Positions 9,691 to 63,990 of a stretch of 64,000 nucleotides of DNA are shown here, in pieces. The DNA lies in NCBI GenBank assembly GCA_025998755.1, contig AP024674.1, forward strand, positions 876,467 to 940,466. The letters are read 5' to 3'. The DNA is from Armatimonadota bacterium. Lineage in GTDB: Bacteria > Armatimonadota > UBA5829 > DSUL01. Each line of letters begins with the position of its first letter. Position 1 is the stretch's first letter. Below the pieces are notes generated by a model, which saw only the letters and a program-made list of their open reading frames with translations, did no database searches and was not told where the DNA came from. A program made the position numbers and the translations under genes.

Positions 9691-9721
9691 TTCTTACCCC
9701 GTTCTTCGGAAAGGGTTCGCG

Positions 9722-10678: not shown

Positions 10679-10684
10679 TTCGCT

Positions 10685-11962: not shown

Positions 11963-12090
11963 TGCAGGTGGGCTCCAGAGGCGCGCCGATATGGTTGAAA
12001 GCTAGGGGCGGCCTCGACTATGATACACGGGCGCCTGCTGAAGGCGCCGTGCTTCTTCGACGCTCTTTCGCGGTGATTTTTCTCAGGCAT

Positions 12091-13993
12091 ATGACCCGTC
12101 ACGAATTGGAATCTCTTCTGCAGGATATCCGCCGTACGCGCATCGCTGTACTGGGTGATTACTGTCTGGACGTCTACTGGTTCATCAACATGTCCCGCAG
12201 CGAGCAGTCTGTCGAGACCGGATTGGACACGCTGCCCGTACAATGGCAAAGGTGCTCGCTGGGGGGAGCCGGAAACGTGGTGAACAACTTGGTAGACCTC
12301 GGATGCGGTCAGGTGGCAGCGTTCGGCGTGGTGGGGTCCGATCCCTGGGGTCACGAGATGTTGCGCCTCCTCCAGGAGAAAGGAGTGGACGTTGATGGTC
12401 TGCTCACGGAGTCTGAGAACTGGGCCACATTGACCTACATAAAACCGCATATCGCGGACACCGAGCAGCAGCGGATAGATTTTGGGAATTTTAACTCTCT
12501 GCCTTCTGAGCGGAGCACCGAGTTGCTCTCGAAGCTGGAGGCGCGCCTTGGGCAGTTCGATGTTGTCGTCGTGAACCAGCAGGTGCTGCAGGGGATTCAC
12601 ACGGACGAGTTCCGCCAAGGCCTTCGTAGCCTCATCCGCCGCCATCCGGAAACGGTTTTCATTGTGGATAGCAGGCACTGGAGCTCCGAATACCCGGAGA
12701 CCGTTTTGAAGGTTAATGATCGGGAAGCCTTGAGGCTATGCGGGCGGGAGACGCCGCCGGGCGCGCTTGTCGTGCGCGAAGAGGCGCTGGCGGCGGCATC
12801 GGAGTTGCACCAAAGGACAGGCAAGACCGTGTTCGTCACGCGGGGAGAACGTGGATGCGTGGTCTGCCACTCAGGCGGCACCGAGGAGATTCCGGGTATT
12901 CAGGTCCTTTCTCGGACGGATCCCGTAGGCGCCGGGTGACAGCTTCCTCGCAGGGGCGGCGGCGGCGCTGGCCGCGGGGCGTCCCCCGGGACAGGCGGCT
13001 TTGCTCGGGAACTTCGCGGCCTCTGTCACGGTGCGCAAGCTCCGGCAGACAGGCACCGCTTCGCCTGCAGAGATTCTGGAGGTGGGGTCAGACCCGGACT
13101 ATGTCTACTTCCCGGAGCTTGCCGAAGATATCCGCCGAGCGCGCTACCTTCCCGGGACAGAATTCGAAGTCGTGACGCAGATCCCGGAAGGATTCCGCCC
13201 GACTCACGCCATCTTTGACCATGACGGCACCATCTCCACCCTCCGGCAGGGGTGGGAGGGGATTATGGAGCCGATGATGGTGCGCGCGGTCCTCGGGCCG
13301 CGCTTCGAGGGCGCCGATGAGTCGCTATACCACCGTGTGCTGGACCGCGTGCGGGAGTTCATAGACAAGACCACGGGTGTGCAGACCATCACCCAGATGC
13401 AGATGCTCATTGACATTGTCCGGGAGTTCGGATGCGTACCGGAGGAGGAGATTCTGGACGCGGCCGGGTACAAGGCGATCTACAACGAGGATCTGATGAA
13501 GATGGTCCGCGGCCGGGTGGCCAAACTCCAACGGGGCGAGCTGTCGGTGGAAGACGTTACTGTCAAGAACGCGCCAGCCTTTCTGGAGCGGCTGCATGCT
13601 GCAGGAGTCAAGCTGTACCTCGCCAGCGGCACCGACCAGCGCGACGTGGAGGAAGAGGCGGCGGCGCTGGGCTATGCGCATCTGTTCGAAGGCCGCATCT
13701 ACGGCAGCGTGGGTGATCCCGGGGCGGAGGCCAAGCGCCTGGTGCTGGAACGCATAATGAGGGACATTGAGGGCGCTCCACGCGCCGGACTGGTCACTTT
13801 CGGCGACGGCCCGGTAGAGATCCGCGAGACACGTAAGCGCGGAGGGCTGGCTGTGGGGGTCGCAAGCGACGAGGTGCGCCGCTACGGAGCGAATCTCTCG
13901 AAGCGCCCCAGACTGATCCGGGCAGGGGCCGACGTGGTCATTCCCGACTTCTCGCAGATGAACCTTCTCCTGCAGCTGCTGGGGGCCGCCTGA
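12091..13993 (+). CDS. PfkB-family carbohydrate kinase fused to HAD-superfamily hydrolase domain (apparent +1 frameshift near 12934-12937)
   Basis: N-terminal ribokinase-like domain resembling HldE domain I (IAVLGDYCLDVYWF, SLGGAGNVVNNLVDLG); frame switches at ccgggtga so that DPVGAG continues as DSFLAGAAAALAAG...LGNFAASVTV (kinase C-terminal motifs); downstream HAD motifs FDHDGTIS, LYLASGT, FGDGPVE. ORF track splits this as 11962..12939 and 13001..13993. Confidence 0.55.
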
Positions 13994-28891: not shown

Positions 28892-29719
28892 ATGGATGGC
28901 TGGCGTCCGGGGATTTCCGTTGAAAACTGGAGCGTCTGGGTTTCTTCCTGCCGTCCGGCTCGAGTTGTCGGCGCTCTTGCTGCGTTGCTTGTCCTTCTTG
29001 TTCCGGCGCCCCTTGAAAGGGGCGTCCTCCCTCCCGGAGTAGTTGAATCGCGCGTGCTCCTGCGACGGGCACAACTGCTGGAAGCGCGCCCACGTCGCCG
29101 GGCTTATCACCCGCCGCACGTTGTCAAGGTCTGGATGGTGGAGCACCGCGGCAGGGTTTTCCGGTGCATCCAGCTCCCGCGATGCGAGCACTTGGAGGCC
29201 ATCCTCTCGCTGGACTGGAACGGCCAGACGCTGGAACAGGCCAAAAAACGGCACGGAGGCGTAGCCGCGTGCACCGACGGCTTCATTCACAGCCGCAACC
29301 TTACTCCGGCGGATTTCCTCCAGACGAACGGCCGCCGCCTTTCGCGCGCGCTCACGGGGCGTTGGATGCTTGTCATCCAGCAGAGCGGGGCGCTGGACAT
29401 TCACGGCAACTATTTCCTGGTGAAGGGCAAGGAGGGTGTCACGGCCGCAGCCCTGGGCCAGAGGCTGGTGCCTCTCGCGTATGACGGTTTCTCCAAAGCG
29501 TTCATGAACCGGGTTACCGACAGGATGGGCATAGGCATGACGAATCATCACATCTTCATCGCCGCCGGCCGTTCAGATATCTGGCGCTTCTCGAAGCTTT
29601 TCAGTGAAGTGCTTCACTGTAAGGTGGCCATCAACACGGACGGCGGTCACGTGGTGCGGGGACGGTCGTCCACACACATCGTGTTCAGGTGGAAGAGTCC
29701 ACAGCCGATAACCAGGTGA
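28892..29719 (+). CDS. hypothetical protein
   Basis: Coding-like ORF whose antisense ORF is Arg-rich junk; no confident family (NTDGGH motif loosely reminiscent of phosphodiester glycosidases). Confidence 0.35.
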   Translation: MDGWRPGISVENWSVWVSSCRPARVVGALAALLVLLVPAPLERGVLPPGVVESRVLLRRAQLLEARPRRRAYHPPHVVKVWMVEHRGRVFRCIQLPRCEHLEAILSLDWNGQTLEQAKKRHGGVAACTDGFIHSRNLTPADFLQTNGRRLSRALTGRWMLVIQQSGALDIHGNYFLVKGKEGVTAAALGQRLVPLAYDGFSKAFMNRVTDRMGIGMTNHHIFIAAGRSDIWRFSKLFSEVLHCKVAINTDGGHVVRGRSSTHIVFRWKSPQPITR

Positions 29720-30672
29720 GAGCGATTCACGAGGAGGAACCTGTGCTGTTCACACGTCACCCCGCCAATCCTGTCCTAGGGCCTTCAGATCTCTGGTGGG
29801 AATACAGAGCCACTTTCAACTGCGCCGCAGCCGAAAAAGACGGGCGCGTCTACCTGCTATATCGCGCGATCGGCGACGATCCCCTCTCGCGCCTGGGACT
29901 GGCCGTCTCGGAAGACGGCGTGCTTTTCGAGCGATATAATCTGCCGGTTTTCGAGGGCGATCCTGACAATCCCTGGGAAAGGCTGGGAGTAGAGGACCCG
30001 CGCGCAACGTTTCTAGACGGGACTTTCTACGTCACCTACGTCGCCGCCTCGGTGTATCCCGCCGGCCATCCGCGGCCGGCATTCAGTTTCGGAGCGCCCT
30101 GGCGAACACGGGTCTGTCTGGCCGCGACGGACGATCTCCAGAACTATCGCCGCTTGGGAGTCATTCTGCCCGATTCGGACAATAAAGACGTTGTGCTATT
30201 CCCGGAGAAGATCCGCGGGCGCTACTGCCTGATGCACCGGGAATACCCGGATATGTGGGTGGCATTTTCTGAAGACCTCATTCACTGGACGGACCATCGC
30301 CGCATTCTGTCTCCCCGGCCTGGTTACTGGGACTGCAATCGCATCGGGGCCGGAGCCCCGCCATTCAAGACGGAACTGGGGTGGGTGGAGATCTACCACG
30401 GCGTCGACGACGATCGCCGGTATATGGCGGGAATCGCGCTGCTTGATCTGGAAGATCCTTCCCGTGTCATCGGGCGATCAGCGGAGCCGCTCCTTGTGCC
30501 CTCAGAATGGTATGAGTGTGAGGGGCTGGTCCCGAATGTCTGCTTCCCGAGCGGTGTAATCGAGCGGGACGGGGTATTCTATGTCTACTACGGCGCCGCT
30601 GACAGATATGTGGCGCTGGCCACCGTCTCAAGAAAGGACCTGCTGGACTACCTGGCCCGCCTGAGAGAGTAA
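29689..30672 (+). CDS. glycoside hydrolase family 130 protein (putative beta-mannoside phosphorylase)
   Basis: GH130-type motifs ([52 protein letters not shown]). Confidence 0.7.
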
Positions 30673-40093: not shown

Positions 40094-40115
40094 GGTGTGG
40101 GAGCGCTCCCACACC
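40094..40115 (+). promoter_or_regulatory. perfect 22-bp palindrome, LacI-family operator candidate
   Basis: ggtgtgggagc|gctcccacacc; core GTGGGAGCGCTCCCAC resembles the symmetric lac operator TGTGAGCGCTCACA; half-site tgtgggagc repeated at 40117-40125; 30 nt upstream of the first gene of the locus. Confidence 0.45.
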
Positions 40116-40144
40116 CTTGTGGGAGCAGAGAAGGAGAGGGCCGT

Positions 40145-42958
40145 ATGCTCCGTGCTACGGCCCCGGAAGCGATGTGGCGTATTCTGCTGGTCGCCATAGT
40201 GGCAGCAGCGCCGTGCGGACCTCTAGCCGCCGCACTGCTGGCGAATGCCGGGTTCGAGGCCGGAGACGGAGCCACGCCTCCAGATCCCCTTTACTGGACA
40301 GAGTACGGTCCGGACCTGACCGGCGAACGCTCTTCTGTCTTCAAGCGCTTGGGAGGATGGGCGGCAAAGCGTTGGACGGGCGGCGACCATCAGGAGTACG
40401 GATATTATCAGGACTTCCCGGCGATCCCGGGCAGAGAGTATCGTCTTGCCGCCTGGCTTCACAGCCCGCCCTCGGACGCGCTGTCTGGCTCCAGCTATGC
40501 GTGTCTGAAACTCGAGTTCCTGTCACCAGGCGGCGCGATGCTGCTCCAACGGGAGAGCCTCCGTCTCACCTCATCCAACGCTGGGTTCGAGGAGTATCTG
40601 GTCACAGCGGTGGCACCTCCGGGGGCCACAAAAGGTCGGGTGGTCTACGCTGTAGGCGCGGGTGCCGCACCGCACGGCGGTGCGGCCTACTGCGACGACG
40701 TCACGCTCGAAGATCTGGGACCGCTGCCCACATCCGACGACGCGTTGCTGGAAGAGCTCCAGAAAAGGGCCTTCCGTTTCTTCTGGGACGAGGCAGGGCC
40801 GCTGGGGCTCATTAAAGACCGGGCAGGCAACTTCCGGCAAGACCGATACCAGCACTCCAGCATCGCATCCGTGGGATTTGGGCTGGCGGCGATCTGCGTG
40901 GCCGAGGGGCGGGGCTGGGTGTCACGGGAGCAGGCTCGTCAGCGCATCGCGCTGACGCTGGATACCCTGGCTACGAAGGTTCCCAGGCAGCACGGATTCT
41001 TGCCCCATTTCCTGGATGCACGAACCGGGCAGCCATCCCCGGGAACGGAATACTCCGCCATTGATACGGCAATCCTGCTCTACGGAGCGCTGTTTGCCGG
41101 GTCCTGGTTCGAGGATCGATACGGAGACGCTTCCATTCGGGAGGCGGCTGAGGCTCTGTACCACGCAGTCCAATGGCCTGTTCTGCATTCGGGCAGCACC
41201 GTTTACAGCGAATACTGGATGATGGATCTGCTGGCCATCGGCTCGCCAACATATCCGCTCCCGCCCTCCGTGTGGAACGCGTTCAGCCGCAACTTCCAGG
41301 ACAATCTGGCCACGCGCCCGGCCGACCGGTCATATCCCAGGTTTTTCTACCCGGTGCTGTTTGTGCACCAGTATCCGCAGCTTTTCCTGGATATGCGGTT
41401 CCGGCGCGACGTCCATACTGTGGACTTGACCTATTTCGAGAGCACCCGGAACCACACTTTTTCGAACAGGCAGTACTGCATTGATCACTCCGTGTCCGCC
41501 GGGTTTGCGCATCCCCGCTTCCAGACCTACTCGGAGCATTGTTGGGGACTGACCGCCGGGGATGGCCCGGACGGATACCGGGACTATGGCGAGGCGCTTC
41601 CCTGGCTGCCGGAGCCGCAGAGCACCTGGCTTCTGGACGGGACCGTCCTGCCGCACGCCGCCGGTGGGTCTGTGGCCTTCGCTCCAGAGGTCTGTATCCC
41701 TGCGCTGCGCCGGATGGCGCAGACATATGGACACCGCATCTGGGGGCGTTACGGTTTTTCGGATGCCTTCAACGTGGACCGGAACTGGTGGGCGGAAGAT
41801 GTCATCGGTATAGACCTGGGCGCCATATTCCTGAGCATCGAGAACTATCGCAGTGGCGGCATCTGGCGGTGGACGATGCGAATCCCAGCCATCCGCCGCG
41901 CGCTGGCGCGGACGGGGTTCGTCGACGAGCGGCAGGCCGCGGTGGAGGATTTCGACTCCGCACCTCTTGGGGTCTGGGGATCCGGTTGCGAGAGCGATTG
42001 GGGAACGGGACACCTGTCATATGAGGAAATCGGGAGCACAGGCCAACTGCCAGGCGGCCGCGTTGCACGAATAACGGCGAGTGTGGCTGGAGGCGGAGCT
42101 GGAATCTGTCTTGGGTCGCTGGATTTGACCTACGCTGACGTCTTGAGCTTCTTCATCCGCGGGCAACGGGGTGGGGAGCGCATCACTCTGGTGCTGCGCG
42201 ATTGCGATGGACGGGAATCTGCCGTTGCGCTGACGGAGGAGCACCTATGGCAGCGCAGCATAGGCACGGACTGGCAGACTGTTTCTGTGCCGCTCAGCGC
42301 TTTCGACGGCATCCGCAGACCGTGCGCAGAGCGGCTGGCATTCCTGCTGCAGGAACCGGGGTCGGTCTGGGTTGACGGAGTGGCGTTCACCGGTGCGCAT
42401 CCAGATGCTCCGGCCGTGCCACTCCCCAGTCCCGGTTATGTGCGCAACCTTCCTCCCGGAGTATCTGTCACTCTCGAAAACCTTGTCGTAACGGACGACT
42501 TCGGAGCGTTTTTCTACGCCGCTCGGCCGGATCGCGCATCAGGAATACGCATTCAGCCGGGCGGCGGCTTCACGCCGGGGGAGCGCATTTCAGTCCGTGG
42601 AACCGTGGGGAGTGCAGATGAGGAGCCGGCGGTCTTCGCGACAGCGGTCTCCCGGCAGGGCAGGGTGTTGCCCCTTGAGCCGGTCGGGATGAAGTTGGCT
42701 GGTATAGGCAATAACCGCCCCGATCCCCTGGGACTGCGGGTTCGCTCCTGGGGTCAGGTGTCCGGTCTCGAACAGGATGGATTCCGTCTCCGGGACGGTT
42801 CCGGACGGGAGCTGGCGGTCGTCGCGCCCTCTCTTCCGAAGCCGGCTCCCGGAGCATTTGTCATTGTCACAGGTGTCGCGGGGCGCCGGGTTGCAGCGCA
42901 GGGTCCCCAACCGGTGCTGCGAATCCGGTCTCCGTGGGACATTGAGGTAGTGCAGTAG
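40145..42958 (+). CDS. secreted multi-domain glycoside hydrolase: N-terminal carbohydrate-binding module + (alpha/alpha)6 GH144/DUF3131-like catalytic domain (putative endo-beta-1,2-glucanase)
   Basis: Signal peptide (WRILLVAIVAAAPCGPLAAALLA); CBM4/9-like segment (NAGFEAGDG...YCDDVTLE); catalytic-domain motifs HGFLPHFLD and YGFSDAFNVDRNWWAEDVIGIDLGAIFLSIENYRSGG; ATG 40145 preceded by aaggagagg. Confidence 0.65.
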   Translation: MLRATAPEAMWRILLVAIVAAAPCGPLAAALLANAGFEAGDGATPPDPLYWTEYGPDLTGERSSVFKRLGGWAAKRWTGGDHQEYGYYQDFPAIPGREYRLAAWLHSPPSDALSGSSYACLKLEFLSPGGAMLLQRESLRLTSSNAGFEEYLVTAVAPPGATKGRVVYAVGAGAAPHGGAAYCDDVTLEDLGPLPTSDDALLEELQKRAFRFFWDEAGPLGLIKDRAGNFRQDRYQHSSIASVGFGLAAICVAEGRGWVSREQARQRIALTLDTLATKVPRQHGFLPHFLDARTGQPSPGTEYSAIDTAILLYGALFAGSWFEDRYGDASIREAAEALYHAVQWPVLHSGSTVYSEYWMMDLLAIGSPTYPLPPSVWNAFSRNFQDNLATRPADRSYPRFFYPVLFVHQYPQLFLDMRFRRDVHTVDLTYFESTRNHTFSNRQYCIDHSVSAGFAHPRFQTYSEHCWGLTAGDGPDGYRDYGEALPWLPEPQSTWLLDGTVLPHAAGGSVAFAPEVCIPALRRMAQTYGHRIWGRYGFSDAFNVDRNWWAEDVIGIDLGAIFLSIENYRSGGIWRWTMRIPAIRRALARTGFVDERQAAVEDFDSAPLGVWGSGCESDWGTGHLSYEEIGSTGQLPGGRVARITASVAGGGAGICLGSLDLTYADVLSFFIRGQRGGERITLVLRDCDGRESAVALTEEHLWQRSIGTDWQTVSVPLSAFDGIRRPCAERLAFLLQEPGSVWVDGVAFTGAHPDAPAVPLPSPGYVRNLPPGVSVTLENLVVTDDFGAFFYAARPDRASGIRIQPGGGFTPGERISVRGTVGSADEEPAVFATAVSRQGRVLPLEPVGMKLAGIGNNRPDPLGLRVRSWGQVSGLEQDGFRLRDGSGRELAVVAPSLPKPAPGAFVIVTGVAGRRVAAQGPQPVLRIRSPWDIEVVQ

Positions 42959-43014
42959 GCTTGGTGTGCTACGGCGCTCGTGCGTGCGCACCTTGCAGAA
43001 AGGAGAGGATGCTG

Positions 43015-44695
43015 ATGAGGAGCTGCAAAGGGCTTATCTGGATGACGCTGCTGGCGCTGGCAGTCTCCCTGCCTGCGGCGGCTGAGAATCTGTTGCTGAA
43101 CCCCAGCTTCGAAGTGGATCCGGTGGAAGACGGGCTGGCGGCCGGCTGGGCGAAGTATCGCTCTGGCGATGGCATTGATGGCTGGCTGAAGCCGTGGTCC
43201 GGCCCGGAGAACGACTGGGTGGCTGTCATTGGCCAATGGCAGCCCGGGCAGTGGGCGTTCTGGGGACAGAGTGCGCCCTGCGTTCCCGGCCGGATCGTCA
43301 CCTTCCGGGCCTGGAGCGGCGGCTTCCCCGGGTTCAACGGCTCCACGAAGGTGAAGCTGGAGTTCTACTATCCGAACCAGGAAGGGGGCACGATGGCCAT
43401 CTCCACGCCGGAGAGCTCATCCATCACGGGACCGCACGGGTGGCGTTTGCAGGAGGTGTCCGTGGTGGTCCCTCCACAGGCCATCCGGGTGCGCGCGATG
43501 CTCTGGGTGGACGGAGCTCCATCAGCACCGGCCAGCGGAAGCGCCAAGTTCGATGACGCCTGGCTGGAGACAGACGGGATCCCGCCGCGAGTGACTCCCG
43601 GCGAGGTCAACGGGCTCCCGGACAACACTCTGGTATGGCTGAAGTGGCCGGTTGTGGTGAAGGACAACGGAAGCGACGAAACCCGCACCGACTGCTACGT
43701 GACGGGATACGGCCGCGAGGGTACCTGCAGGGTGGTATCGTCGAATCCCATTCTCAGCAACGGGGGTACCGGTTGCGGTCCGACCGGGTGTTATGCTCCA
43801 CGTGCTTGGCACCGTTCAAACGGTGAACGGCGAAAAACGCGTGAACGCCATAGACATCGTTCCCACCAACTGGGACGGGCCGTGGCCCAGGCAGATCGGC
43901 ATGACATCCAAGTCCATGGCACTCCCACCGAACCCGTCCGGGCAGATTGTCCGGCTCGTCGGAAACGTCAGCAGCACGACTCCCGACAAGAGCTTTGTCT
44001 ATGTGGATGACGGGGCGAACGTGCCGGGCGAGGCTGGGTACACCGGTGTCAGGGTTCCCTATCCGGGCAGTCCAGATGACTATCCGGCCATCGGAGACAC
44101 AGTCGCAGCTACCGGTGTGCTTTGGCTGGAGCCAGGAGCTGGCGGACAGCGTTATCCCGTTCTGTATACCCGCCGCGCCACGGATTTCAGCATCATCAAC
44201 ATTGGCAGCGGGGGCATCGGGCGCAACCTCCTGCTGAATCCCGGCTTCGAAGAAGGTCCTGCGAACTGGGAGCGATCACCTCAGAGCGTGGCCCCGGAGC
44301 GCTGGGCGGCCCGTTCCGGAAGCTGGGGCATGGCGTTCTACGCGTGGGATACCTACGAGCAGGTCTTTGTCGGCCAGAGGGTGCGCAACATCGTGCCCGG
44401 AGCCTCTTACTCCTTCAGCGCCTACATCCTGAAGGAGGTCAACCACGTGGGCAACGTGGTTATGGAGGTTCACTGGTTCGATGCGGACGGTAACGAGATT
44501 CTCCCTGCGGTAGAAGTCCCTGCCGCCGCGGGCACCACTTGGCAGCAGTTCACTGTACCGGTTGTCGCCCCGGCCGGGGCCGCCGAGGGGAGTTTCGTAA
44601 TCCGGAACGTGGATCACGAACCTGCTCCGCCGCCCGGGCAGCTTCAGGCAGTGATGATTGACGACGTGGTGGTGAAGATGACCGCCACGCCCTGA
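43015..44695 (+). CDS. secreted protein with two CBM4/9-like carbohydrate-binding modules (apparent frameshift at G5 run 43762-43766)
   Basis: Signal peptide (LIWMTLLALAVSLPAAA); NLLLNPSFEVDPVEDG and NLLLNPGFEEGPANWE module starts; reading frame changes near cgggggtacc. ORF track shows 42961..44010 and 43793..44695. Confidence 0.5.
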
Positions 44696-44863
44696 TCAGT
44701 GTTGGAAAAGCTTCGGGAAGCGCGCCGTGGTCAGCTACAACGTTCGCGGCGCGCCTCCCGGGAAGATCGGCGAGTTATTCGCCGGAACAGCAGAAGCAGA
44801 CCTTCCGGAGCGTTGCAGCGCTCAGGGAGCTGCAAGTCTCAACGAGACAAGGAGGAAAGACAG

Positions 44864-45628
44864 ATGGGTAAGTGGTTCTGGCTCTGCTCGCTGGCACTGG
44901 TCCTTGGTGTCAGTTGCGCGGCGAACGCTTACGGGCCGGTCAGCTCCATTGATTCGGCCAAGGTCTATCAGTACGTGTGGCAGGACGATCCGGACTCCAC
45001 TCTGACGGTGGTGAACAACTATCCGTCCTATATCAGCTTCCGCGATGAGAACCTGGACGGCGACGGTCAGGGCGGGGAGTATGCCAACCGGCACGTCTGG
45101 AGGTTCTCCGCGGACGGTGGGTCAACTCCTTTCGAGTTCGGCAACACCACCTATTTCGAGTACTTCGTGGACGTGAAGGTGCAGGGCGACCCCACGACGG
45201 GGAAGCATCACGAAGCGGGCATCTTCTTCGACTATCGAGGCTGGGACGGCGTTCTGATGGTGAAGACCAACGGAGAGATCGCCGCCTTCGGCTATGTCCT
45301 TCCGTTTTATGCCTTCTTGGATCCGTACACCCCCGGCGACTGGATCCGTATCGGGGTGAAGTATTTCCAGGATCCCGGAGACGGCAAGAACAAGATCCGG
45401 TATTACGCGGGCTCCGCGCAGAGCCCCGCTCTGGCATTCGGAAACCTGGAGGGGGGCATCATTGACGGAACGACCATCGGGGGCTACGGACAGTTCCAGA
45501 TCGCTCCCGGGGTCCAGTCCAACTTCGGCATGGCGGAGTGGGGCAACATTCACATTGTGCCGGAACCGGCGTCGCTTCTGGTGCTGGCCGCCGGCGTGGC
45601 AGGCATGGCCCTGCGCCGCAGGCGCTAG
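44864..45628 (+). CDS. PEP-CTERM sorting domain protein (exosortase substrate)
   Basis: Signal peptide (WFWLCSLALVLGVSCAANA) and C-terminal VPEPASLLVLAAGVAGMALRRRR (PEP motif, TM helix, Arg cluster); aaggagg RBS. Confidence 0.7.
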   Translation: MGKWFWLCSLALVLGVSCAANAYGPVSSIDSAKVYQYVWQDDPDSTLTVVNNYPSYISFRDENLDGDGQGGEYANRHVWRFSADGGSTPFEFGNTTYFEYFVDVKVQGDPTTGKHHEAGIFFDYRGWDGVLMVKTNGEIAAFGYVLPFYAFLDPYTPGDWIRIGVKYFQDPGDGKNKIRYYAGSAQSPALAFGNLEGGIIDGTTIGGYGQFQIAPGVQSNFGMAEWGNIHIVPEPASLLVLAAGVAGMALRRRR

Positions 45629-45793: not shown

Positions 45794-46483
45794 ATGAACC
45801 GCAAGGCATTCACGCTTATTGAACTGCTGGTGGTGATCGCCATCATCGCGATCCTGGCTGCCATCCTGTTCCCGGTTTTCACCCGGGCCCGAGAGAGCAG
45901 CAAAAGGTCGGCCTGTCTGTCCAACTGCAAGCAGCTCGCTTCTGCAATGCAGATGTACATTGATGACTGGAAAGGCCGCTTCCCGTCGTTCACGTATAGT
46001 GAGCAGTGGAAGCAGCTGGAGCCGCAGAATATCGTCTCCTACACAAAGAGCGAAGATGTCTTTCACTGCCCTGGCGCTACGGATATCAATAGCGCCCGGG
46101 TTCCGCCGCGAAACGCCAGCGAAAACTGGAAGAACTACTTCGGCCGGAATATGGGCAGCCCGGCTCAGTGGAAGTGGACGGACTACAAGATGATGGACAA
46201 CGGGTATCTGCCAGGAATGAGCGCCTCTGAAGTGCGCTCGCCCGTGTGGCTGGTGGTCTGTATTGACAACACGGACTGGTGGCCGCGGCATCCACGAGGC
46301 ACGGCTGCGAAAAATTACAACGATGGAGGGAGCAATCTGGCGTTCCTGGACGGACACGCGGCGTATTTTCCGAAGGAACGCTACAACGACGGCAACAAGC
46401 GATCCGGTCCCGATGTGGACGACGCAGGAGCCACTCCTTTCTGGAACTGGGGGCTTCCCCGGGATTACTGGATTCCGGAATGA
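45794..46483 (+). CDS. prepilin-type N-terminal cleavage/methylation domain protein (DUF1559-like)
   Basis: N-terminus [29 protein letters not shown]; C-terminal [15 protein letters not shown] (H-X9-DG-like); ggagg RBS. Confidence 0.8.
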
Positions 46484-47772
46484 TCCCTGTGCTGTTGGCA
46501 TTGATGCTCGCGGGAACCGCCGCGGCGGGAGGCGAGCTGCGAGATGACCGCAGCTACCTGATCCAGGTTGCTCGCGAGACGTGGCGCTACTTTGAAGAGT
46601 GCCGCGACCCGGTATCCGGCCTGGTCTGGGATCACTGCGGGGAGACTGGCGCTGAAGGTCGGGGAGAGTATACCAGCCCCACGAATATCGCCCTAGACCT
46701 CACCTCGACGCTTGCGGCGATGGACCTCGGCATCATCACGCGGCAGCAGGCACAGGAGCGCATCGAAACGATTGTCGGCACACTTCAAAAGCTGGATCGG
46801 TACCGGGGGTTTTTCTTCAATTTTTATGAAACTGCCACGCTGAAGCCGACAGTACGCTTCCTTTCTTTTGTGGACAACGGCTGGCTGACCCTGGCGCTTC
46901 TGGCCGTCCGGCAGGAGTTTCCGGGAGATATGGGGGAGCGGGCCACCGCCATATTGAACAGCCAGGACTATGCATTCTTTTATGACCGGAAGGCCGGTTT
47001 GATGTATCACGGGTTCCATACGGATCGCAGGGGGATCCGCTACGGCCACTATGCTATCTTTTGCTCCGAACCCCGGGCGGCATCGCTTCTGGCCATCTCT
47101 CGCGGCGATGTGCCGGTGGAGCACTGGTTCCGGATGGAGAGAGCGCGTCCGGCCGAGGGGAAGGATTACAGGAAAGGAGAGATGCGCCGTTACTGCGGCG
47201 TCGACGTCCAGGAGAGCTACTTCGTCTACCGCGGTGTGCCCGTTGTGCCCAGCTGGGGCGGAAGCATGTTCGAGTTTTTGATGCCATCCCTGTTCATTGA
47301 CGAGTCCAGGTATGCGCGCACCAGTCTGGCCGAAAACAATCGCCGCGCCGTAGATGCGCAGATTGCGTTTGCCGCGGAGAGGGGAATGCCTGCCTGGGGA
47401 CTGTCGCCGTGCGCCAATCCGGCTGGCGGATATGGAGAGTACGGCGCTGCACCCATCGGGGTACAGGGGTATGCAGAGGGCGTAGTGACCCCGCACGCCT
47501 CGTTTCTGGCACTGGAGATCCGCCCTGCAGAGTCGCTGGCCAACATCCGGAAAATGGAACAGCTGTATGCCATCCGTGGTCACTACGGGTTCCGGGACTC
47601 TGTGGACACGTCTTCCGGCCGGGTAGCCAGTGTGTATCTGGCGCTTGACCAGGGCATGATCCTCACCGCCATCGGCAACTATCTGACGGGCGGCTCGATC
47701 CGCCGGCGCGTTATGCGGGATCCATCCATGAAGAAGGCTACCAGGATTCTTGCAATGGAGCGCTTTTTCTGA
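46480..47772 (+). CDS. secreted GH144/DUF3131-like (alpha/alpha)6 glycoside hydrolase, second copy
   Basis: Signal peptide ([18 protein letters not shown]); motifs SFVDNGWL and YGFRDSVD...[21 protein letters not shown] paralogous to the 40145..42958 catalytic domain; start overlaps upstream stop (ATGA). Confidence 0.65.
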
Positions 47773-47791
47773 AGGAAATGGGGCAAGGAAA

Positions 47792-48853
47792 GTGGCTGCT
47801 TCCAGAACACCACCGAACATCTTCGACGTGGCCCGTCGGGCGGGGGTTTCCAAGTCCACGGTTTCGCGCGTTCTGAACGGGTCGGATCGCGTGAGCGAAG
47901 CCTCCCGACAGGCGGTTCTCCGGGCAATGGAAGACCTCGGCTTTCGGCCGAACAGCGCCGCCAGGCGTCTTGCAGGCTCGGCGGACCGGCGCATTGGTCT
48001 GTTGCTGCCTTTTTTCGGAAGCATGTTCTCATCCTTTTACGTGTATGAGATCATCCGTGGGGTGGGTCAGGTGGTTTCGGAACGCGATACGGAACTGCTG
48101 CTCCATTTTCAGCACGAAGACCGCAATGGACATAACCTCCGGCGGCGTTTGACAGCCAATGGTGCGCTTGGCGGATGGGTCATCGCAGATGAAATGGTGG
48201 ACGACGGGCTACTGGAAGAGGTTCGCGAGGCTGGAATCCCCTTTGTGTTGCTGAACAGAGAGTCCTCCGTTCCGTGGTCTTCCTGGGCCACAGTGGATAA
48301 CCGGGGCGCCGCAGAGGCAGTTGTGGAATATCTCGTTTCTCTCGGACACACGTTTATCGCCACGCTGACTGGTCCGCTTCACCAGCCTCCCGCCCGGGAG
48401 CGCCTGGAAGGCTTCCAAGCGGCGATGGCTGCGCGGGGTCTTGAGGTTCCGGATGGTTGGGTGGCCCGCTGCGACTTTCAGCGGCAGCTGGCAGCGGAAG
48501 AGACAGTCAGAATGCTTCGAGAACGTCCCCGTCCGACGGCTATCTTTGCGGCGTCGGACCTGATGGCCGCCGGCGCATATGAGGCTGCCTCGTCGCTTGG
48601 GTTGCGGATCCCGGAGGATCTCTCGGTGGTGGGCTTCGACGACGACTTCATTGCGGCTCAGTTGATTCCCCGCCTGACTACGGTCCGCCAGCCCCTCCAG
48701 GATGCGGCGCGGGCGGCCACATCCTGGTTGCTGGATCATCTGGAAGAAAGAAACGGACAACCGCTACGTGTGAGATTGCCGGCTTTTCTGGTGGAACGCG
48801 ACTCCTGTGCGCCGCCCTCCCGGGCGGACAACAGCAAGGGGAGCAGACCATGA
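47792..48853 (+). CDS. LacI-family transcriptional regulator
   Basis: N-terminal HTH NIFDVARRAGVSKSTVSRVLNG plus periplasmic-binding-like sugar-binding domain; GTG 47792 chosen, TTG 47750 possible. Confidence 0.8.
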   Translation: MAASRTPPNIFDVARRAGVSKSTVSRVLNGSDRVSEASRQAVLRAMEDLGFRPNSAARRLAGSADRRIGLLLPFFGSMFSSFYVYEIIRGVGQVVSERDTELLLHFQHEDRNGHNLRRRLTANGALGGWVIADEMVDDGLLEEVREAGIPFVLLNRESSVPWSSWATVDNRGAAEAVVEYLVSLGHTFIATLTGPLHQPPARERLEGFQAAMAARGLEVPDGWVARCDFQRQLAAEETVRMLRERPRPTAIFAASDLMAAGAYEAASSLGLRIPEDLSVVGFDDDFIAAQLIPRLTTVRQPLQDAARAATSWLLDHLEERNGQPLRVRLPAFLVERDSCAPPSRADNSKGSRP

Positions 48854-51243
48854 ACGCCGCGGTCGCGGGGAGGTTGAGTGCAGCCGGGCGGACCCGCTTC
48901 GGTCATTTCTCGGAAGACGGCAGGGAATTCGTCATCCGCCGGCCAGACACTCCGCGGCCCTGGGTGAACGTTCTGTGCAACGACGATCCGGGATACGGGT
49001 GCATTTGGAGCCAGGCGGGAGGTGGTTATAGCTGGCTGGTCAACGCGGAGTTGAACCGGATCACCTTCTGGCAGCAGGACCTGATCCGGGATGACCGTGG
49101 GCGTTTTATCTATCTGCAGGATGCCCGGACCGGCGAGCTCTGGTCGGCCGGGTACCAGCCTGTCCGGCGGAAGCCCGAAGCCTTCGAATGCCGCCATGGG
49201 GCGGGCTACTCCGTCCTTAGCTCCCAGAACTCGGGCGTTCTCAGCCGGTTGACGGTCTTTGTGCCGCCGGCAGCGCCGCTGGAGGTCTGGCTGCTGGAGG
49301 TTGCAAACTTCTCGGGAGCCCCGCGCGATATCCTGGTTACCAGCTATCTGGAATGGTGCCTGGGCACAGCGCACGACACTCACCGGGAGTTCCATCGCAT
49401 CTTCATAGAAACGGAGTTCATCCGAGAACGCAGCGCCATCTTGGCGCGCAAGCGTCTGTGGGCCATCCCAAACGCCCTGGGCCAGGGATGGAACCGCAAC
49501 TGGGAGGGAACGGCATTTCACGCTTGCTCCCTACCCGTCGCCGCGTTCGAGTGCGACCGGGAGGTGTTTGTCGGGAGATACGGTTCTCTGGAATCGCCTG
49601 CCGCTTTGACTAACGGGCGGATGGCGGGGACCAGCGGACGATGGGGGGATCCCATCGCATCCCTTCAGGCCCCCCTCCGCTTGGGACCGGGTGAGTCGGC
49701 GGAGTTGGTCTTCGTTCTGGGCGCAGCCAATAGCGACGCAGTTGCGTTGTCTCTGGCGGAGCAGTACTGCAACGTCAAGCGTGCGGCCGAGGCGCTCCGC
49801 GAAACTCAGCTATGGTGGAGAAACCGTCTGGATGGCTACTCGGCCGAGACCCCGGACCCGGGACTGAATGCTCTGCTTAATACTTGGCTCCGCTATCAGG
49901 CCATGGCGGGGCGCCTCTGGGGGCGCAGCGGATACTATCAACCGGGCGGGGCATACGGCTTCCGTGATCAGCTACAAGACAGCCTGGTCTTCCTGCCGAC
50001 AGAGCCGGATCGGACCCGCCGTCAGATCCTGCTGCACGCGGCACACCAGTTCTCTGCCGGGCACGTGTTCCACTGGTGGCAGCCGATCGCCGAGTCCGGC
50101 GCGCACAGCAGGTTTTCAGACGATCTCCTCTGGCTACCGTTTGCGGTGCTGGCCTATATCCGGGAGACCGGCGACACGGCCATCCTGAATTTTCAAGCGC
50201 CTTTTGTGGACGGCCCTTCGGATACCATCCGGAACCACTGCGAGCGCGCGCTCGATCTGGCCCTGTCCCGAAGGAGTCCCCGTGGCCTGCCGCTCATGGG
50301 CGAGGGGGACTGGAACGATGGCCTTTCGGCGGTCGGCTGGGAGGGTAAAGGCGAATCGGTATGGGTGGGACATTTTCTGTGCTATCTCCTTCCGCGCTGG
50401 GCGGAGCTGGCCAGGACCGTGGGTGACGGCGAGCGCGCGGCACAGTACCTGCAGGCGGCCCAAGACCTGCAGGCTGCCATCAACAGGTGGGCCTGGGACG
50501 GCCAGTGGTATTTCCGGGCGACCTGCGACGATGGGACGGTGATCGGCGGCAGTGCGTGCAATGAAGGCCAGATATTCCTGAACGCTCAAACATGGTCGAT
50601 CATCGCCGGGGTCTGCCCTCCCGAGCGCCGTAGGCAACTTATGCGGACGGTCCGGGACCGGCTCTATACGGCAGCCGGGCCGGTGCTGCTCCGTCCGGCA
50701 TACACCGTGCCGGATGAACGGATTGGATACCTCACCCGTTACGCTCCCGGGGTGCGGGAGAACGGGGGTGTGTATCTCCACGCGGCAACGTGGGCGATCT
50801 GGGCCGAGTGCCTGCTCGGCCGCGCAGAGCAAGCCTGGAGACTTGTTCAGAGCATCTCTCCTTGCATTCGTGCACTGGACGCTGAACTGTACCGCGCCGA
50901 GCCATACGTAACGCCCGGGAACATCGATGGCCCGGACTCGCCGCACTTCGGGCGCGGGGGGTGGACGTGGTACACCGGATCGGCCGCCTGGCTGTTCCGG
51001 GTGGTTGCGGAGTGGTTGCTGGGAGTCCGTCCCGCCAGGGAAGGACTGCGAGTTGCCCCCTGCATCCCTGAGGACTGGGACGGTTTTCGGGTGTACCGTC
51101 GCTTCCGTGGAGCGGGCTACCAGATCGCTGTTTCCAGAAATGGTGAGGGGGGGAAGCTTATGGTGGACGGCCGCCCTGTTGCAGGGGACATTGTGCCAGC
51201 ATTCCACGACGGGAAAGACCATCAGGTCGAACTCCTGTTGTAG
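48850..51243 (+). CDS. glycoside hydrolase family 94 phosphorylase (cellobiose/oligoglucan phosphorylase type)
   Basis: N-terminus FGHFSEDGREFVIRRPDTPRPWVNVLCND typical of GH94; 797 aa; start overlaps LacI stop. Confidence 0.8.
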   Translation: MNAAVAGRLSAAGRTRFGHFSEDGREFVIRRPDTPRPWVNVLCNDDPGYGCIWSQAGGGYSWLVNAELNRITFWQQDLIRDDRGRFIYLQDARTGELWSAGYQPVRRKPEAFECRHGAGYSVLSSQNSGVLSRLTVFVPPAAPLEVWLLEVANFSGAPRDILVTSYLEWCLGTAHDTHREFHRIFIETEFIRERSAILARKRLWAIPNALGQGWNRNWEGTAFHACSLPVAAFECDREVFVGRYGSLESPAALTNGRMAGTSGRWGDPIASLQAPLRLGPGESAELVFVLGAANSDAVALSLAEQYCNVKRAAEALRETQLWWRNRLDGYSAETPDPGLNALLNTWLRYQAMAGRLWGRSGYYQPGGAYGFRDQLQDSLVFLPTEPDRTRRQILLHAAHQFSAGHVFHWWQPIAESGAHSRFSDDLLWLPFAVLAYIRETGDTAILNFQAPFVDGPSDTIRNHCERALDLALSRRSPRGLPLMGEGDWNDGLSAVGWEGKGESVWVGHFLCYLLPRWAELARTVGDGERAAQYLQAAQDLQAAINRWAWDGQWYFRATCDDGTVIGGSACNEGQIFLNAQTWSIIAGVCPPERRRQLMRTVRDRLYTAAGPVLLRPAYTVPDERIGYLTRYAPGVRENGGVYLHAATWAIWAECLLGRAEQAWRLVQSISPCIRALDAELYRAEPYVTPGNIDGPDSPHFGRGGWTWYTGSAAWLFRVVAEWLLGVRPAREGLRVAPCIPEDWDGFRVYRRFRGAGYQIAVSRNGEGGKLMVDGRPVAGDIVPAFHDGKDHQVELLL

Positions 51244-51288: not shown

Positions 51289-51318
51289 TTGACGGGGCTT
51301 CCGCCTTCGCCCTATAAT
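51289..51318 (+). promoter_or_regulatory. near-consensus sigma70 promoter
   Basis: TTGACG (51289-51294), 18-nt spacer, TATAAT (51313-51318); about 55 nt upstream of the 51377 start with gggaggagaagggg RBS. Confidence 0.45.
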
Positions 51319-51376
51319 CTCGCCGCCGGCTGCGGCCCAAAGGCTGCGATTGAGACCGGGAGGAGAAGGGGCTGAA

Positions 51377-52075
51377 ATGAACCTTAAGACTGCGAAGCGC
51401 GCAGGGCTGAGCCTGGCGCTGCTCATCCTCGTATGCGAAGCTGCTGTGGCATACAGCATCGTGAACGTGCCCACTGCCAACCAGGCGGCTTTGCGGGAAG
51501 TTAACCTTGCCTACTACAGCATGTCTGTGGACAGGCTGCCGGTCACGCACAAGGACATCATCATTATCTACTCCACGGTAGCGCCGAACCTCGAGGTGGA
51601 GTACTTCCACATCAATATCAACAAGGGGGCTCCCTCGCAGAATCTGGTGAACGCCAGCTACAGGTTGGTGAGCGAAACGGCGCAGATCCCGGACGTAGTG
51701 GTGGGCGCCAAGAATATCTTCGAGGACGACCACTCGCCCAATCCCGATGAGCAGAAGCGCTCCTATTACATCGCCACCGCAAAGACCCTGAACCCGCCGA
51801 AGCCGGGAGCCGCCTGGCAGCCCGTGGTGCGTCTGCACGTGAACTACGGCACCCGGGAGCACAGGGGACTGTTCGGTGGTGTCCAGATCGCGGTCACGCC
51901 GCAGCTGGGGATCGCGGCAATGAAGTTCTCCAGCTCACCCTATGTGGACACCTTTTTCGGCAACTCGATGGAATATGCCGTCGTTTACTCGCTCGGGAAA
52001 GGGCGTCCCACGCTGAAGGCGGGCACTCTGGGCCGCCACGAATGGGTGGGACTGGATTACAGCATCTTCTTCTGA
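51377..52075 (+). CDS. hypothetical exported protein, possible outer-membrane beta-barrel
   Basis: Signal peptide (LSLALLILVCEAAVA), alternating beta-strand-like pattern, C-terminal aromatic residues (YSIFF). Confidence 0.5.
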   Translation: MNLKTAKRAGLSLALLILVCEAAVAYSIVNVPTANQAALREVNLAYYSMSVDRLPVTHKDIIIIYSTVAPNLEVEYFHININKGAPSQNLVNASYRLVSETAQIPDVVVGAKNIFEDDHSPNPDEQKRSYYIATAKTLNPPKPGAAWQPVVRLHVNYGTREHRGLFGGVQIAVTPQLGIAAMKFSSSPYVDTFFGNSMEYAVVYSLGKGRPTLKAGTLGRHEWVGLDYSIFF

Positions 52076-61087: not shown

Positions 61088-62296
61088 TCAGGGGTCTACG
61101 TCTTGGAGCACTTCCGGCGGCAAAAGGTCCGTGGTGAGCAACCGAGCTTCGGGGTCGGCCAGCACGCACGCTCTCTCGATCACATTTTCCAGCTCCCGCA
61201 CATTGCCAGGCCACCGGTAGGCCGTCAGGGCATCCAGGAACTCCTGAGAAGCCCCCTCGATCTTGCGTCCTTCTTCAGGTGCGTATTTGCGGATAAAGTG
61301 GTCCACAAGCAGGGGAATGTCTTCCGTGCGCTCGCGGAGAGGAGGAAGGTCTATCTGGACTACCTTGAGCCGGAAGTAGAGGTCCTCGCGGAACTCTCCC
61401 TTCTCCACCAGCTTCGCCAGGTCCTGGTTCGTGGCTGTGATCAACCTGACATCCACGCGGATGGTCTTGTTGCCCCCCACGCGCTCGAACTCACGCTCCT
61501 GAAGCACCCGCAGCAGCTTGCGCTGCACCTCCATCGGAATGTCACCGATCTCGTCTAGGAAAAGCGTCCCTTTGTGCGCCAGCTCAAAGCGTCCAATCTT
61601 CTGGGACAGCGCACCGGTGAAGGCACCTTTCTCGTGACCGAAAAGCTCGCTCTCCAGCAGGTTCTCGGACAGAGCGATGCACGCAACCGCCACAAAGTTC
61701 TCCGACGCGCGAGGGCTGTTGAAGTGAAGAGCCCGGGCGATCAGCTCCTTACCGGTTCCACTCTCCCCGCGGATGAGGACGGAAGCCCGGGACTGGGCCA
61801 CCCGTTCCACCAGGTCGAACACCTCCCGCATCTTTGGGGACTGTCCCACGATGTTGTCAAAACGGTAAGACTGCTTCAGTTTTTCACGGACGCCCGTGTC
61901 CGGAGACTCCAGTTCCCGGCGCTCGATGGCCTTTCGCACCAGAACCTTCAAGTCGTCTATGTCGAAAGGCTTGGTGACGTAGTCGAAGGCGCCCAGGCGC
62001 ATCGCATCCACAGCCGTGCGGATGGTCCCGTGAGCGGTAATCATCACAACGGAGACACGGGGGTTGGTCTCCCGGACAACCTCCAGAAGCTCCACACCGT
62101 TGATGTCCGGCATGATCAGGTCGCTGATCAGAACATCCGTGTCCCGGTTGGCCTTCAACAGCTCCAGCGCCTTTCTGCCGTTCTCGGCCGTGAATACCTG
62201 ATAGCCCTCCCGCTGGAACGTGGCTTCCAGCACGCGACGGATGTTCGGCTCGTCGTCCGCGATCAGAATGGTTCCGGCTTTGGCGTTCTCCGGCAA
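61088..62296 (-). CDS. sigma54-dependent response regulator (receiver + AAA+ domain, no C-terminal HTH)
   Basis: Receiver [15 protein letters not shown]...[12 protein letters not shown]; AAA+ motifs [30 protein letters not shown]; only ~33 aa follow GNVRELEN; TTG 62296 chosen because the ORF-track N-terminus overlaps the kinase gene. Confidence 0.7.
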
Positions 62297-62391
62297 GTGT
62301 TTTCCCCCAAGGTCAGACTCGCCGCCGATGTGCGGCGTGGTTATCCTCCGGCCAACATTATCGGCAAAGCGTGCCCCTGCTGCGCAGCGTC

Positions 62392-63990
62392 TCACGCCCG
62401 TTCCATCAGATCGGGCGGCGCAGGCTCGTGCTGCTGAAGCAAAGACGGCGCTGGTCCCCTGACAGGAAGGTGTATCCGGAAGAGCGATCCTTCTCCCTCG
62501 GCAGACTCTACGGCGATATGCCCTCCGTGGTTCTGGATGATCTTCTGGACCACTGGCAGGCCGAGCCCGGTGCCTTTCACTTTTGTCGTGAAGAACGGTG
62601 TGAAAATCCGCTCCAGGCGGTCCGACGGGATTCCGCAGCCCGTGTCGCGCACCCACAGCTCCACGCTCTCCGGCCAATCGGCCGAAGGACGCGCCCCGAG
62701 TTCCAGTGTGCCACCGTCCGGCATCGCCTGGATGGCGTTCAGGATCAGGTTCAGAAGCACCTGCTCTAGCTGCTTGACATCCGCCAGGAAGAGGGGTGTT
62801 CCTTCCTGGACGGCTACGGCGCAATCAATGCCTGCCTGTTCCAGTTGCGCGGCCACGCGCGAGCGCCCTCGCTCAAGGAGCTCAAGCGCCCTGACCTCCG
62901 ACACTTCCAGCTTCAAGGGACGAGCGAAGTCCAGGAACTCGCTTGCGATCCGGTTGAGCCCATCCACCTCCTCGATGATGATGTTGAGGAACTCCCGGTC
63001 GGCGGGGTCGGTAAGCTCGGAGTTGAGGAACTGCGCCGCTCCTTTAATGGATGAAAGTGGGTTGCGCAGCTCGTGCGCAATGCTTGCCGCAAGCTGACCG
63101 ATGGCGGCCAGCTCTCCCATGCGGCGTACCTCTTCCTGCATCCGCACTTGCCGGGTCATGTCCTCGAACACGATAACGAGTCCCAGCGGCTCGCCATCCG
63201 TATTTCTGAGCTGCGAAGAACTTAGTGAAATGTGAAGCTGCGATTCCGGCCCGCTCTTCAGGGTGAGGACGATGCCCCGCTCTGGTGGCGCGCCGTCCAG
63301 AACGCGCGCTAGGGACGCCTCCAGAGTGGCCAGGTCCGAAGGAGCTATCTCGAAGCGCTCCAGCACCTCGGTGAACGTGACTCCCAAAGTAGCGGAAGTT
63401 TCGATTCCCAGGATCTCCTCCGCCGCACGGTTCCAACTCACAACCCGACCCGAGCTGTCCAGCGTCACCACTCCTGCCGGCACGCTGGACAGGATGTTAT
63501 CGGTGTAGGTGGTCAGTGCAGTCAAAGCTTCCAGGCCGCGGTAGATGGATGCGGCCTGCGACGCAATGACTGAGAGCACCCGCAGATGGTCTTCCGTATA
63601 GACGTTGGGCGAGCGGCTGTGGACACTGAGGACCCCCACGACTTCGTCTTGCACCATCAGGGGAATGGCCATGACGGACCGCAGCAGCGGGTCGCGCGCC
63701 ACCTCCGCGAATCGCGCATCCTTCTGGATGTCCGGCAGGACCACTGCTTTGCGCTCGTGCACCGCCCAGCGCGCCAGACGGTAACCCCCTGAGCTGTCCC
63801 CGGCCTGTCCCGTGCGCATCTGCAGAGCGCCGGACTCCGGATCCACCGTCCAGATGAAGCACTCGTCGCATTCCACCAGATCCCGCACGATGGCCACGAT
63901 GCTAGCAAGCGCTTCGTCAAGGTTGGCGGCGGTGCTGATTCGCTGGGAAAGCTCATACAACGCGGAGAGCTCCAGCACCTTCTCGCGCAT
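62392..63990 (-). CDS. cytoplasmic sensor histidine kinase (GAF-PAS-HisKA-HATPase)
   Basis: H-box [18 protein letters not shown] boxes [14 protein letters not shown] and [17 protein letters not shown]; no TM segments seen; start within 10 nt of window end. Confidence 0.8.

Follow-up and report, generated by a model that had tools for sequence, protein, structure and literature searches.

A PEP-CTERM protein of an Armatimonadota bacterium belongs to a widespread, unmodelled family with a predicted jelly-roll fold and conserved linkage to β-1,2-glucanase-like genes

We analysed a window of 64,000 nucleotides of an Armatimonadota bacterium (assembly GCA_025998755.1, contig AP024674.1, positions 876,467 to 940,466 of the forward strand), and in particular a gene at positions 44864-45628 of this window, whose 254-residue product ends in a PEP-CTERM sorting signal. 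The tag is in itself ordinary, but the body of the protein is not: what is new here is a phylogenetically broad family, covered by no existing profile and predicted to fold as a jelly roll, which sequence comparisons identify as a conserved partner of β-1,2-glucanase genes. We regard it as an even prospect that the protein is a non-catalytic, surface-displayed β-1,2-glucan-binding protein, because of its sorting signals, the chemistry of its locus, the conserved gene linkage, a fusion to a domain of glycoside hydrolase (GH) family GH144, the non-catalytic character of all other fusions, the presence of tandem copies, and an anchor that varies between lineages. Part of this best explanation, held with the same middling confidence, is that the family as a whole has a central, non-catalytic part in β-1,2-glucan utilisation loci; a functional role of the protein in a β-1,2-glucan system is probable. 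We infer three things: that the protein is located at the surface, that β-1,2-glucan is its ligand, and that it is not catalytic. An earlier, preliminary description of this DNA had placed a PEP-CTERM protein in a carbohydrate-active locus and had suggested that it might be a glycan-binding or scaffold component of the cell surface; its interpretation is partly supported by the present results, which go beyond it in assigning the body to a domain family that is widespread and has no profile, and in narrowing the locus to β-1,2-glucan.

The gene lies on the + strand, exactly where it had been described, and is intact: it has an ATG at 44864, a stop codon at 45626-45628, and a Shine-Dalgarno-like AGGAGG at 44850-44855, 8 nt before the ATG. 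Its homologues of the same length begin at the same methionine, and the closest one (P0001, 93% identity) is likewise of 254 residues. A longer open reading frame (ORF) with a GTG start at 44699, present in the mechanical ORF list, was rejected, its extra part being Arg-rich and without counterpart in the homologues. Neither an intrinsic terminator nor a sigma-70 promoter pattern was found flanking the gene. The two highest hydropathy peaks of the protein correspond to a leader (residues 4-21) and to a helix in the tail (residues 235-250). The leader is part of a Sec-type signal peptide comprising residues 1-22 (MGKWFWLCSLALVLGVSCAANA; 44864-44929, +) with an AXA cleavage site at A20-N21-A22, which was called by hydropathy and inspection and not by a trained predictor; hydrophobic N-terminal leaders are found across the homologues. 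We also considered a lipoprotein anchored through Cys18, and rejected it: this cysteine is not kept in the homologues, while the AXA site is.

The PEP-CTERM sorting signal occupies the final 23 residues (232-254, VPEPASLLVLAAGVAGMALRRRR; 45557-45625, +). The tail HIVPEPASLLVLAAGVAGMALRRRR scores 26.5 bits against Pfam PF07589 over residues 232-253 of 254 (cut-off 20.7) and 22.1 bits against TIGR02595 (curated cut-off 16), and its layout, VPEP-ASLLVLAAGVAGMAL-RRRR, includes all the elements of such signals, namely the Pro-Glu-Pro motif, the transmembrane helix and the basic cluster. Thus both the signal peptide and the VPEP-TM-RRRR tag of the preliminary description were recovered. A regular expression applied to all six-frame ORFs found one PEP-CTERM-type tail in the window, the one described here. 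Since 75 of 94 homologues from other genomes keep this tail, it is not a chance match, and on its tail profile, tail layout and signal peptide we consider the protein a bona fide PEP-CTERM protein. It resembles the other proteins recognised by PF07589 and TIGR02595 in having a signal peptide and a VPEP motif followed by a helix and an Arg cluster, and it resembles most of them in having a body without characterised homologue.

This conserved body extends over residues ~25-231 (44936-45556, +). It is rich in Gly, Asp and Tyr, as had been noticed (14.4%, 8.2% and 7.2%, respectively, with 7.2% Phe), and it is marked by a signature consisting of FANRHxW, KEAG, the aromatic-rich E(I/V)xAFGxxLPFYxF, and GGYxQ. 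The body has no match in Pfam even at E<=1 and none in NCBIfam, where the matches to named subfamilies are limited to the final ~25-45 residues and score well under their cut-offs; a profile of the family has no match at E<=10 among 177,635 Protein Data Bank (PDB) sequences. Structure prediction, which the preliminary description had proposed as a check, gave a lectin- or carbohydrate-binding module (CBM)-like answer: the AlphaFold2 model of the body is a concanavalin-A-like jelly roll (pLDDT 86). Its closest structural neighbours, none of them above 17% identity, are lyases of polysaccharide lyase family PL7, CBM66, lectins and GH16. Foldseek concurs in these jelly-roll neighbours and also retrieves receptor-binding domains from clostridial toxins.

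The top fold matches of the model are enzymes, and several polar positions are nearly invariant among 94 unique domain copies (D41, N75, H77 (86%), S82, E117, E138, S187 and Q210); R37 and N40 are conserved elsewhere in the family, and the clade of the window has Y and Q there. These observations would suit a new catalytic jelly roll in which the invariant D/E/H set is catalytic, displayed at the surface and complementing GH144. Such an enzyme might hydrolyse or transglycosylate glycosides in a cleft like that of GH16 or GH12, or it might remove or modify substituents of β-1,2-glucan. We think it rather unlikely that the body is such an enzyme. The searches mentioned above (Pfam at E<=1, PDB sequences at E<=10) assign it to no enzyme family, which agrees with the earlier remark that it has no recognisable enzyme motifs. 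Although its predicted fold is that of PL7 (8jsd, 5zqi, 1vav and 2cws), identity to these lyases is 7-14%, the motifs R[STN]EL, Q[IV]H and YFKAGxYxQ are absent from the sequence, no Pfam alginate-lyase profile matches at E<=1, and the genetic context points to a neutral β-glucan rather than to uronic-acid polymers; it is established chemistry that the lyase mechanism requires a uronic acid, which neutral β-1,2-glucan does not have. The ExDxxE catalytic strand of GH16 is likewise absent, and no GH16 profile matches. In its predicted β-sandwich fold and in its deployment, the protein resembles CBM66 (4b1m), the legume and ERGIC-53/Emp47 lectins, and the surface glycan-binding proteins of polysaccharide utilisation loci (PULs). 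It nevertheless differs from all of these (<=17% identity, no profile match, a domain larger than CBM66), and it is for the most part a stand-alone, PEP-CTERM-anchored protein with β-1,2-glucan as its presumed ligand, and not a lipoprotein or an enzyme appendage.

Relatives of the protein are numerous and carry no informative names. A word-indexed search retrieved 54 clusters, all unnamed or annotated as 'hypothetical protein', and a HMMER search of 1.84 billion representatives retrieved 475 clusters at E<=1e-3, with 200 of them reaching E<=1e-30 and most members being of 240-280 residues, so that the family size is ~475 when counted as clusters at 50% identity. A scan of one genome per species of the GTDB taxonomy yielded 225 relatives, and the linkage counts given below refer to the best 80 of these 225, in species-representative genomes of at least five phyla. 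Represented among these 80 are Planctomycetota (mostly Phycisphaerae), Verrucomicrobiota, Armatimonadota, Eisenbacteria, Krumholzibacteriota and Acidobacteriota. The near relatives L001-L003, L013 and L014 (67-96% identity) keep the entire gene order of the window, and one relative, at 96% identity, is from an Armatimonadota metagenome-assembled genome (MAG).

The flanks of the 80 loci were searched with the proteins of the window, and hits to the catalytic GH144 region were then told apart from hits to the CBM-like module at the N-terminus of the window's 953-residue GH144-like protein. This separation matters, given that our first count of 'SGL-like' neighbours was inflated and had to be recomputed: in the arrangement 'X, pilin, third gene' (X being the family gene), the third gene matches only the CBM-like module. 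In the refined counts, 44 of the 80 loci have a GH144-type catalytic gene at <=3 kb from the family gene and 55 have one at <=10 kb; the corresponding figures are 16 and 34 for a GH94 gene, 52 and 55 for a pilin-like gene, and 20 at either distance for a gene that encodes a multi-CBM-like protein of ~600 residues. The nearest PF10091-type gene tends to be close to the family gene, at <=500 bp in 26 loci, at 0.5-3 kb in 29 and at 3-10 kb in six, bins that precede the refinement and include some N-terminal CBM-like matches. Spot checks in Phycisphaerales and Verrucomicrobiota confirmed the GH144 type of the neighbours there. Two gene orders prevail, 'X, pilin, CBM-protein' and 'LacI(-) GH144 X GH94 pilin'. 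Because order and orientation differ between lineages, the linkage argues for selection on the association itself and not for shared ancestry of one operon. Four loci from MAGs titled Bifidobacterium, Bifidobacteriaceae or Cyanobacteria (L022, L024, L057 and L061) are of the type seen in the Planctomycetota-Verrucomicrobiota-Chlamydiota (PVC) group, with a PEP-CTERM jelly-roll gene, GH144 and a pilin-like gene; the bins or labels of these MAGs are probably wrong.

The domain architectures of the family point in the same direction. In P0112 (753 residues), an N-terminal family domain is followed by a PF10091 domain and a dockerin, which we read from the sequence as a Rosetta-stone fusion to the enzyme family that is otherwise encoded next door, in the usual layout of a CBM with its enzyme. 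Both by this fusion and by gene linkage, then, the family is coupled to a carbohydrate-active catalytic domain, as CBMs and surface glycan binders are. All other multi-domain members combine the family domain with Ig-like, CHRD, HYR, FlgD-Ig, T9SS-tail (type IX secretion system) or dockerin modules, and never with another catalytic domain; one copy lies inside a 3070-residue adhesin-like protein. In Eisenbacteria, two tandem copies of the domain precede a terminal T9SS sorting domain. Tandem duplication is common among binding modules, and both the duplication and the fusions to Ig-like, adhesin and anchor modules resemble a binding module more than the catalytic jelly roll considered above. 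The anchor changes with lineage on a constant body: to the PEP-CTERM tail of 75 of the 94 homologues correspond, in the rest, a T9SS tail, a dockerin, a TSP3-like Cys-rich tail (in Verrucomicrobiota), a weak IPTL-CTERM-like tail or a short TWGxIKxxY[RK] tail. Since the anchor varies and the body does not, this swapping points to an extracellular, displayed module. The tail 'P..TWG.IK..Y[RK]', which replaces PEP-CTERM in homologues from Eisenbacteria and Krumholzibacteriota (L053, L069, L081, L087 and L089), could be an unrecognised sorting or processing tag.

The nature of the presumed ligand is suggested by the neighbouring genes in the window, which are all on the strand of the family gene from the GH144-like gene through GH94. 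Upstream, at 40097-42958 (+), is a gene for a secreted 953-residue homologue of GH144 endo-β-1,2-glucanases (PF10091, 192 bits; signal-peptide-like N-terminus), with a CBM-like module at its N-terminus and a weak match of CBM30 type; its PDB matches are 4gl3, 8xul (XcSGL) and 5gzh (CpSGL). Downstream are three further genes of carbohydrate metabolism or its control. At 46480-47772 (+), a secreted 430-residue GH189-like protein (PF10091, DUF3131) has as its best PDB matches 8wy1 (TiCGS-Tg, GH189) and the middle (cyclase/transglycosylase) domain of cyclic β-1,2-glucan synthase (8rf0/8rf9); a regulator of the LacI family (LacI and Peripla_BP_3 domains) is encoded at 47750-48853 (+); and a cytoplasmic GH94 phosphorylase of 797 residues, without signal peptide (PF17167, PF06165), at 48850-51243 (+). 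Its best PDB match is the GH94 domain of the synthase, at 539 bits; cellobiose phosphorylase follows at 475 bits, and the known sophoro-oligosaccharide phosphorylase (SOGP) 5h3z reaches only 35 bits. The hallmarks of a β-1,2-glucan utilisation locus, that is, the SGL clan together with GH94 and a regulator, are therefore present, PF10091 occurring twice; the carbohydrate-active setting of the preliminary description is thereby confirmed.

In the study that delimited the newer SGL groups (PMC12102758), the six SGL-clan enzymes assayed for substrate specificity are all β-1,2-glucan-specific, and PMC11842490 describes the GH94 and middle domains of the synthase as acting on β-1,2-glucan chains. 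Because the neighbours match β-1,2-glucanases and synthase domains, and because of this specificity of the SGL clan, the locus is best read, from homology, as a β-1,2-glucan utilisation locus. It has a GH144-type enzyme, a GH189-like protein, GH94 and a sugar-responsive regulator in common with the SGL (GH144)/phosphorylase clusters described by the Nakajima group (PMC12102758, PMC11842490). It differs from the known clusters in two respects. First, its GH94 is nearest to the synthase domain and not of the SOGP type, and may represent an uncharacterised type of β-1,2-oligoglucan phosphorylase. Second, there is no ABC binding protein or SusC/D pair at the locus; the conserved partners at loci of this family are instead the jelly-roll protein, the pilin-like protein and the multi-CBM protein. 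A text search of PMC12102758 and PMC11842490 returned no passage on a jelly-roll or binding protein of this kind. The presence of an endo-glucanase in these loci is a further point against the body being a catalytic jelly roll. As a separate observation, stand-alone homologues of two synthase domains (GH189-like and GH94) stand here within a LacI-controlled gene set that looks catabolic.

Directly after the family gene, at 45794-46483 (+), lies a gene for a pilin-like protein with a prepilin N-terminal methylation motif (PF07963, 34 bits; TIGR02532) and a DUF1559-like region (PF07596, 22.4 bits, slightly under the cut-off of 23.3); the start of the GH189-like gene overlaps its stop by 4 nt. 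This is the sole N-methyl-motif gene of the window, and it adjoins the family gene. Across the loci, moreover, no other neighbour is as constant as the pilin-like gene (<=3 kb in 52 of 80), which usually comes next downstream in the same orientation, and with only ~11 further pilin-like matches elsewhere in the 20-kb flanks this is not a matter of background abundance. It has been proposed, as the 'fishing rod' hypothesis, that pilin-like proteins take part in polysaccharide uptake in Planctomycetota (PMC12078418). The family protein might accordingly be an adaptor of its pilin-like neighbour, such as a tip adhesin or docking partner of a glycan-reeling pilus or pseudopilus-like fibre, instead of a free-standing lectin. 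We hold this to be improbable, given that PEP-CTERM, T9SS and dockerin anchors imply independent attachment, that many loci pair the family gene with GH144 without a pilin-like gene, and that the fishing-rod model is itself unproven.

A third gene recurs after the family gene and the pilin-like gene, forming a trio. It encodes a secreted protein of ~600-650 residues, made of two or three repeats of the N-terminal module of the 953-residue protein and without a sequence match in the PDB; the trio occurs in L011/L012, L028, L029, L031, L034-L037, L040, L048, L050, L051, L058, L064, L067, L068, L076 and L091.

The published context of PEP-CTERM proteins bears on a further explanation. Haft et al. 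(2006, PMC1569441) found that PEP-CTERM co-occurs with EpsH across genomes, and that the tagged proteins are typically diverse, of unknown function, linked to exopolysaccharide and biofilm biology, and encoded in single-gene operons. The protein studied here could then be a generic structural protein of the matrix or floc, similar to PepA, for which the carbohydrate locus is incidental: it has weak matches in its tail to PepA and other PEP-CTERM families, and intergenic gaps of 168 bp and 165 bp flank its gene. This seems to us very improbable. The NCBIfam matches in question are the tail-limited, sub-threshold ones reported above, and, unlike typical PEP-CTERM genes, this one sits in a conserved glycan-utilisation gene set; its linkage to GH144, GH94 and pilin-like genes persists across phyla and anchor types, to which the direct GH144 fusion must be added. 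In contrast to known PEP-CTERM systems, the gene has neither a sigma-54 PEP-CTERM box nor a PrsK/PrsR pair linked to it. Shuffled sequence contains TGGCAC-N5-TTGC-like sites as often as the window does, and the region upstream of the gene has none. At 61088-63990 (-), the window encodes a histidine kinase of GAF-PAS type and a response regulator dependent on sigma-54, which we considered as candidates for PrsK/PrsR; they were rejected, as their best scores are AtoC/AtoS-like and the PrsR score of 403.6 bits is below the cut-off of 502.6.

Taking these results together, we propose a mechanism for the β-1,2-glucan-binding protein that we favour. The protein would be exported by Sec, and an exosortase would recognise its PEP-CTERM signal and deliver it to the cell surface or the exopolysaccharide layer, following the PEP-CTERM/EpsH model of Haft et al. 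(2006). There, the jelly-roll body of ~205 residues would bind β-1,2-glucan chains and keep them within reach of three partners, the secreted endo-β-1,2-glucanase of GH144 type, the CBM-rich protein and the pilin-like protein; the sophoro-oligosaccharides released would be taken up and phosphorolysed by the cytoplasmic GH94 enzyme under LacI control. The glycan-binding part of the preliminary description thus fits the lectin- or CBM-like fold of the model, the linkage to β-1,2-glucanase genes and the GH144 fusion, with binding itself as the conditional element. A wider proposal would be that the body constitutes a new β-1,2-glucan-specific CBM family and that, with the pilin-like and multi-CBM proteins, it makes up an unrecognised apparatus for surface capture and uptake, which Planctomycetota, Verrucomicrobiota, Armatimonadota and Eisenbacteria use instead of SusC/D or ABC binding-protein systems; we put this forward tentatively, as possible but somewhat doubtful.

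It is important to consider that several observations weigh against a non-catalytic β-1,2-glucan binder. First, the ligand is suggested by the neighbouring genes alone. Second, both GH144 and GH94 are absent from the available flanks in 16 of the 80 loci; several of these flanks are short, and nine of the loci have flanks that are not (L016, L017, L020, L026, L039, L044, L046, L056 and L085). Third, D41, N75, H77, E117 and E138, a set with two Glu and one Asp, could be catalytic instead of binding ligand or Ca2+. Fourth, no Pfam match to an exosortase was found among the ~55 ORFs of the 64-kb window; an exosortase is expected elsewhere in the genome, as the preliminary description also held, solely by analogy with the published co-occurrence of PEP-CTERM and EpsH (PMC1569441). 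A literature search on exosortase and Armatimonadota returned nothing relevant.

β-1,2-Glucans are bacterial polymers of symbiosis, virulence and osmoregulation, and the enzymes that act on them have been catalogued only recently (GH144, GH162, GH186, GH189 and newer SGL groups). We know of no description of how environmental bacteria outside Bacteroidota and Firmicutes capture these glucans and, to our knowledge, very few exosortase substrates have a known role. Recurring beside GH144 and GH94 in no fewer than five phyla, and fused to GH144 in one case, the family offers a specific candidate, open to experiment, for the surface-binding component that is missing from the picture of β-1,2-glucan use. 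If this were true, it would represent a new CBM-type family and a possible β-1,2-glucan probe, and a function would be assigned to one family of PEP-CTERM proteins. Our literature searches found no report that pairs β-1,2-glucan with PEP-CTERM, and when we looked for a CBM specific for β-1,2-glucan, the sole result was CBM92, whose preference is for β-1,6-glucan.

Several other features of the window were recorded. Between the GH144-like gene and the family gene, at 42961-44695 (+), is a gene for a secreted protein with two CBM4_9-like modules (weak CBM_4_9 and NTTRR-F1 matches), which a +1 frameshift splits into two overlapping ORFs. Alignment to L001 and L013 traces the frameshift to one extra G in the G5 run at 43762-43766; removing one G gives a 559-residue ORF, and its product aligns from end to end with the L001 homologue at 88% identity. 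The frameshift is either a sequencing error, typical for homopolymers in long reads, or the mark of a recent pseudogene. Beyond GH94, in the interval 51289-52075, an 11/12 match to the sigma-70 consensus (51289-51318) stands ahead of the gene for a 241-residue secreted protein without family match. The related contig L001 also encodes this protein, but there an extra gene, with a product of 698 residues, lies between it and GH94. Far upstream, at 8671-12939 and 29689-30672, are genes for a sugar ABC binding protein and permease, a GlcNAc-2-epimerase-like protein, a PfkB kinase and a GH130 phosphorylase-like protein.

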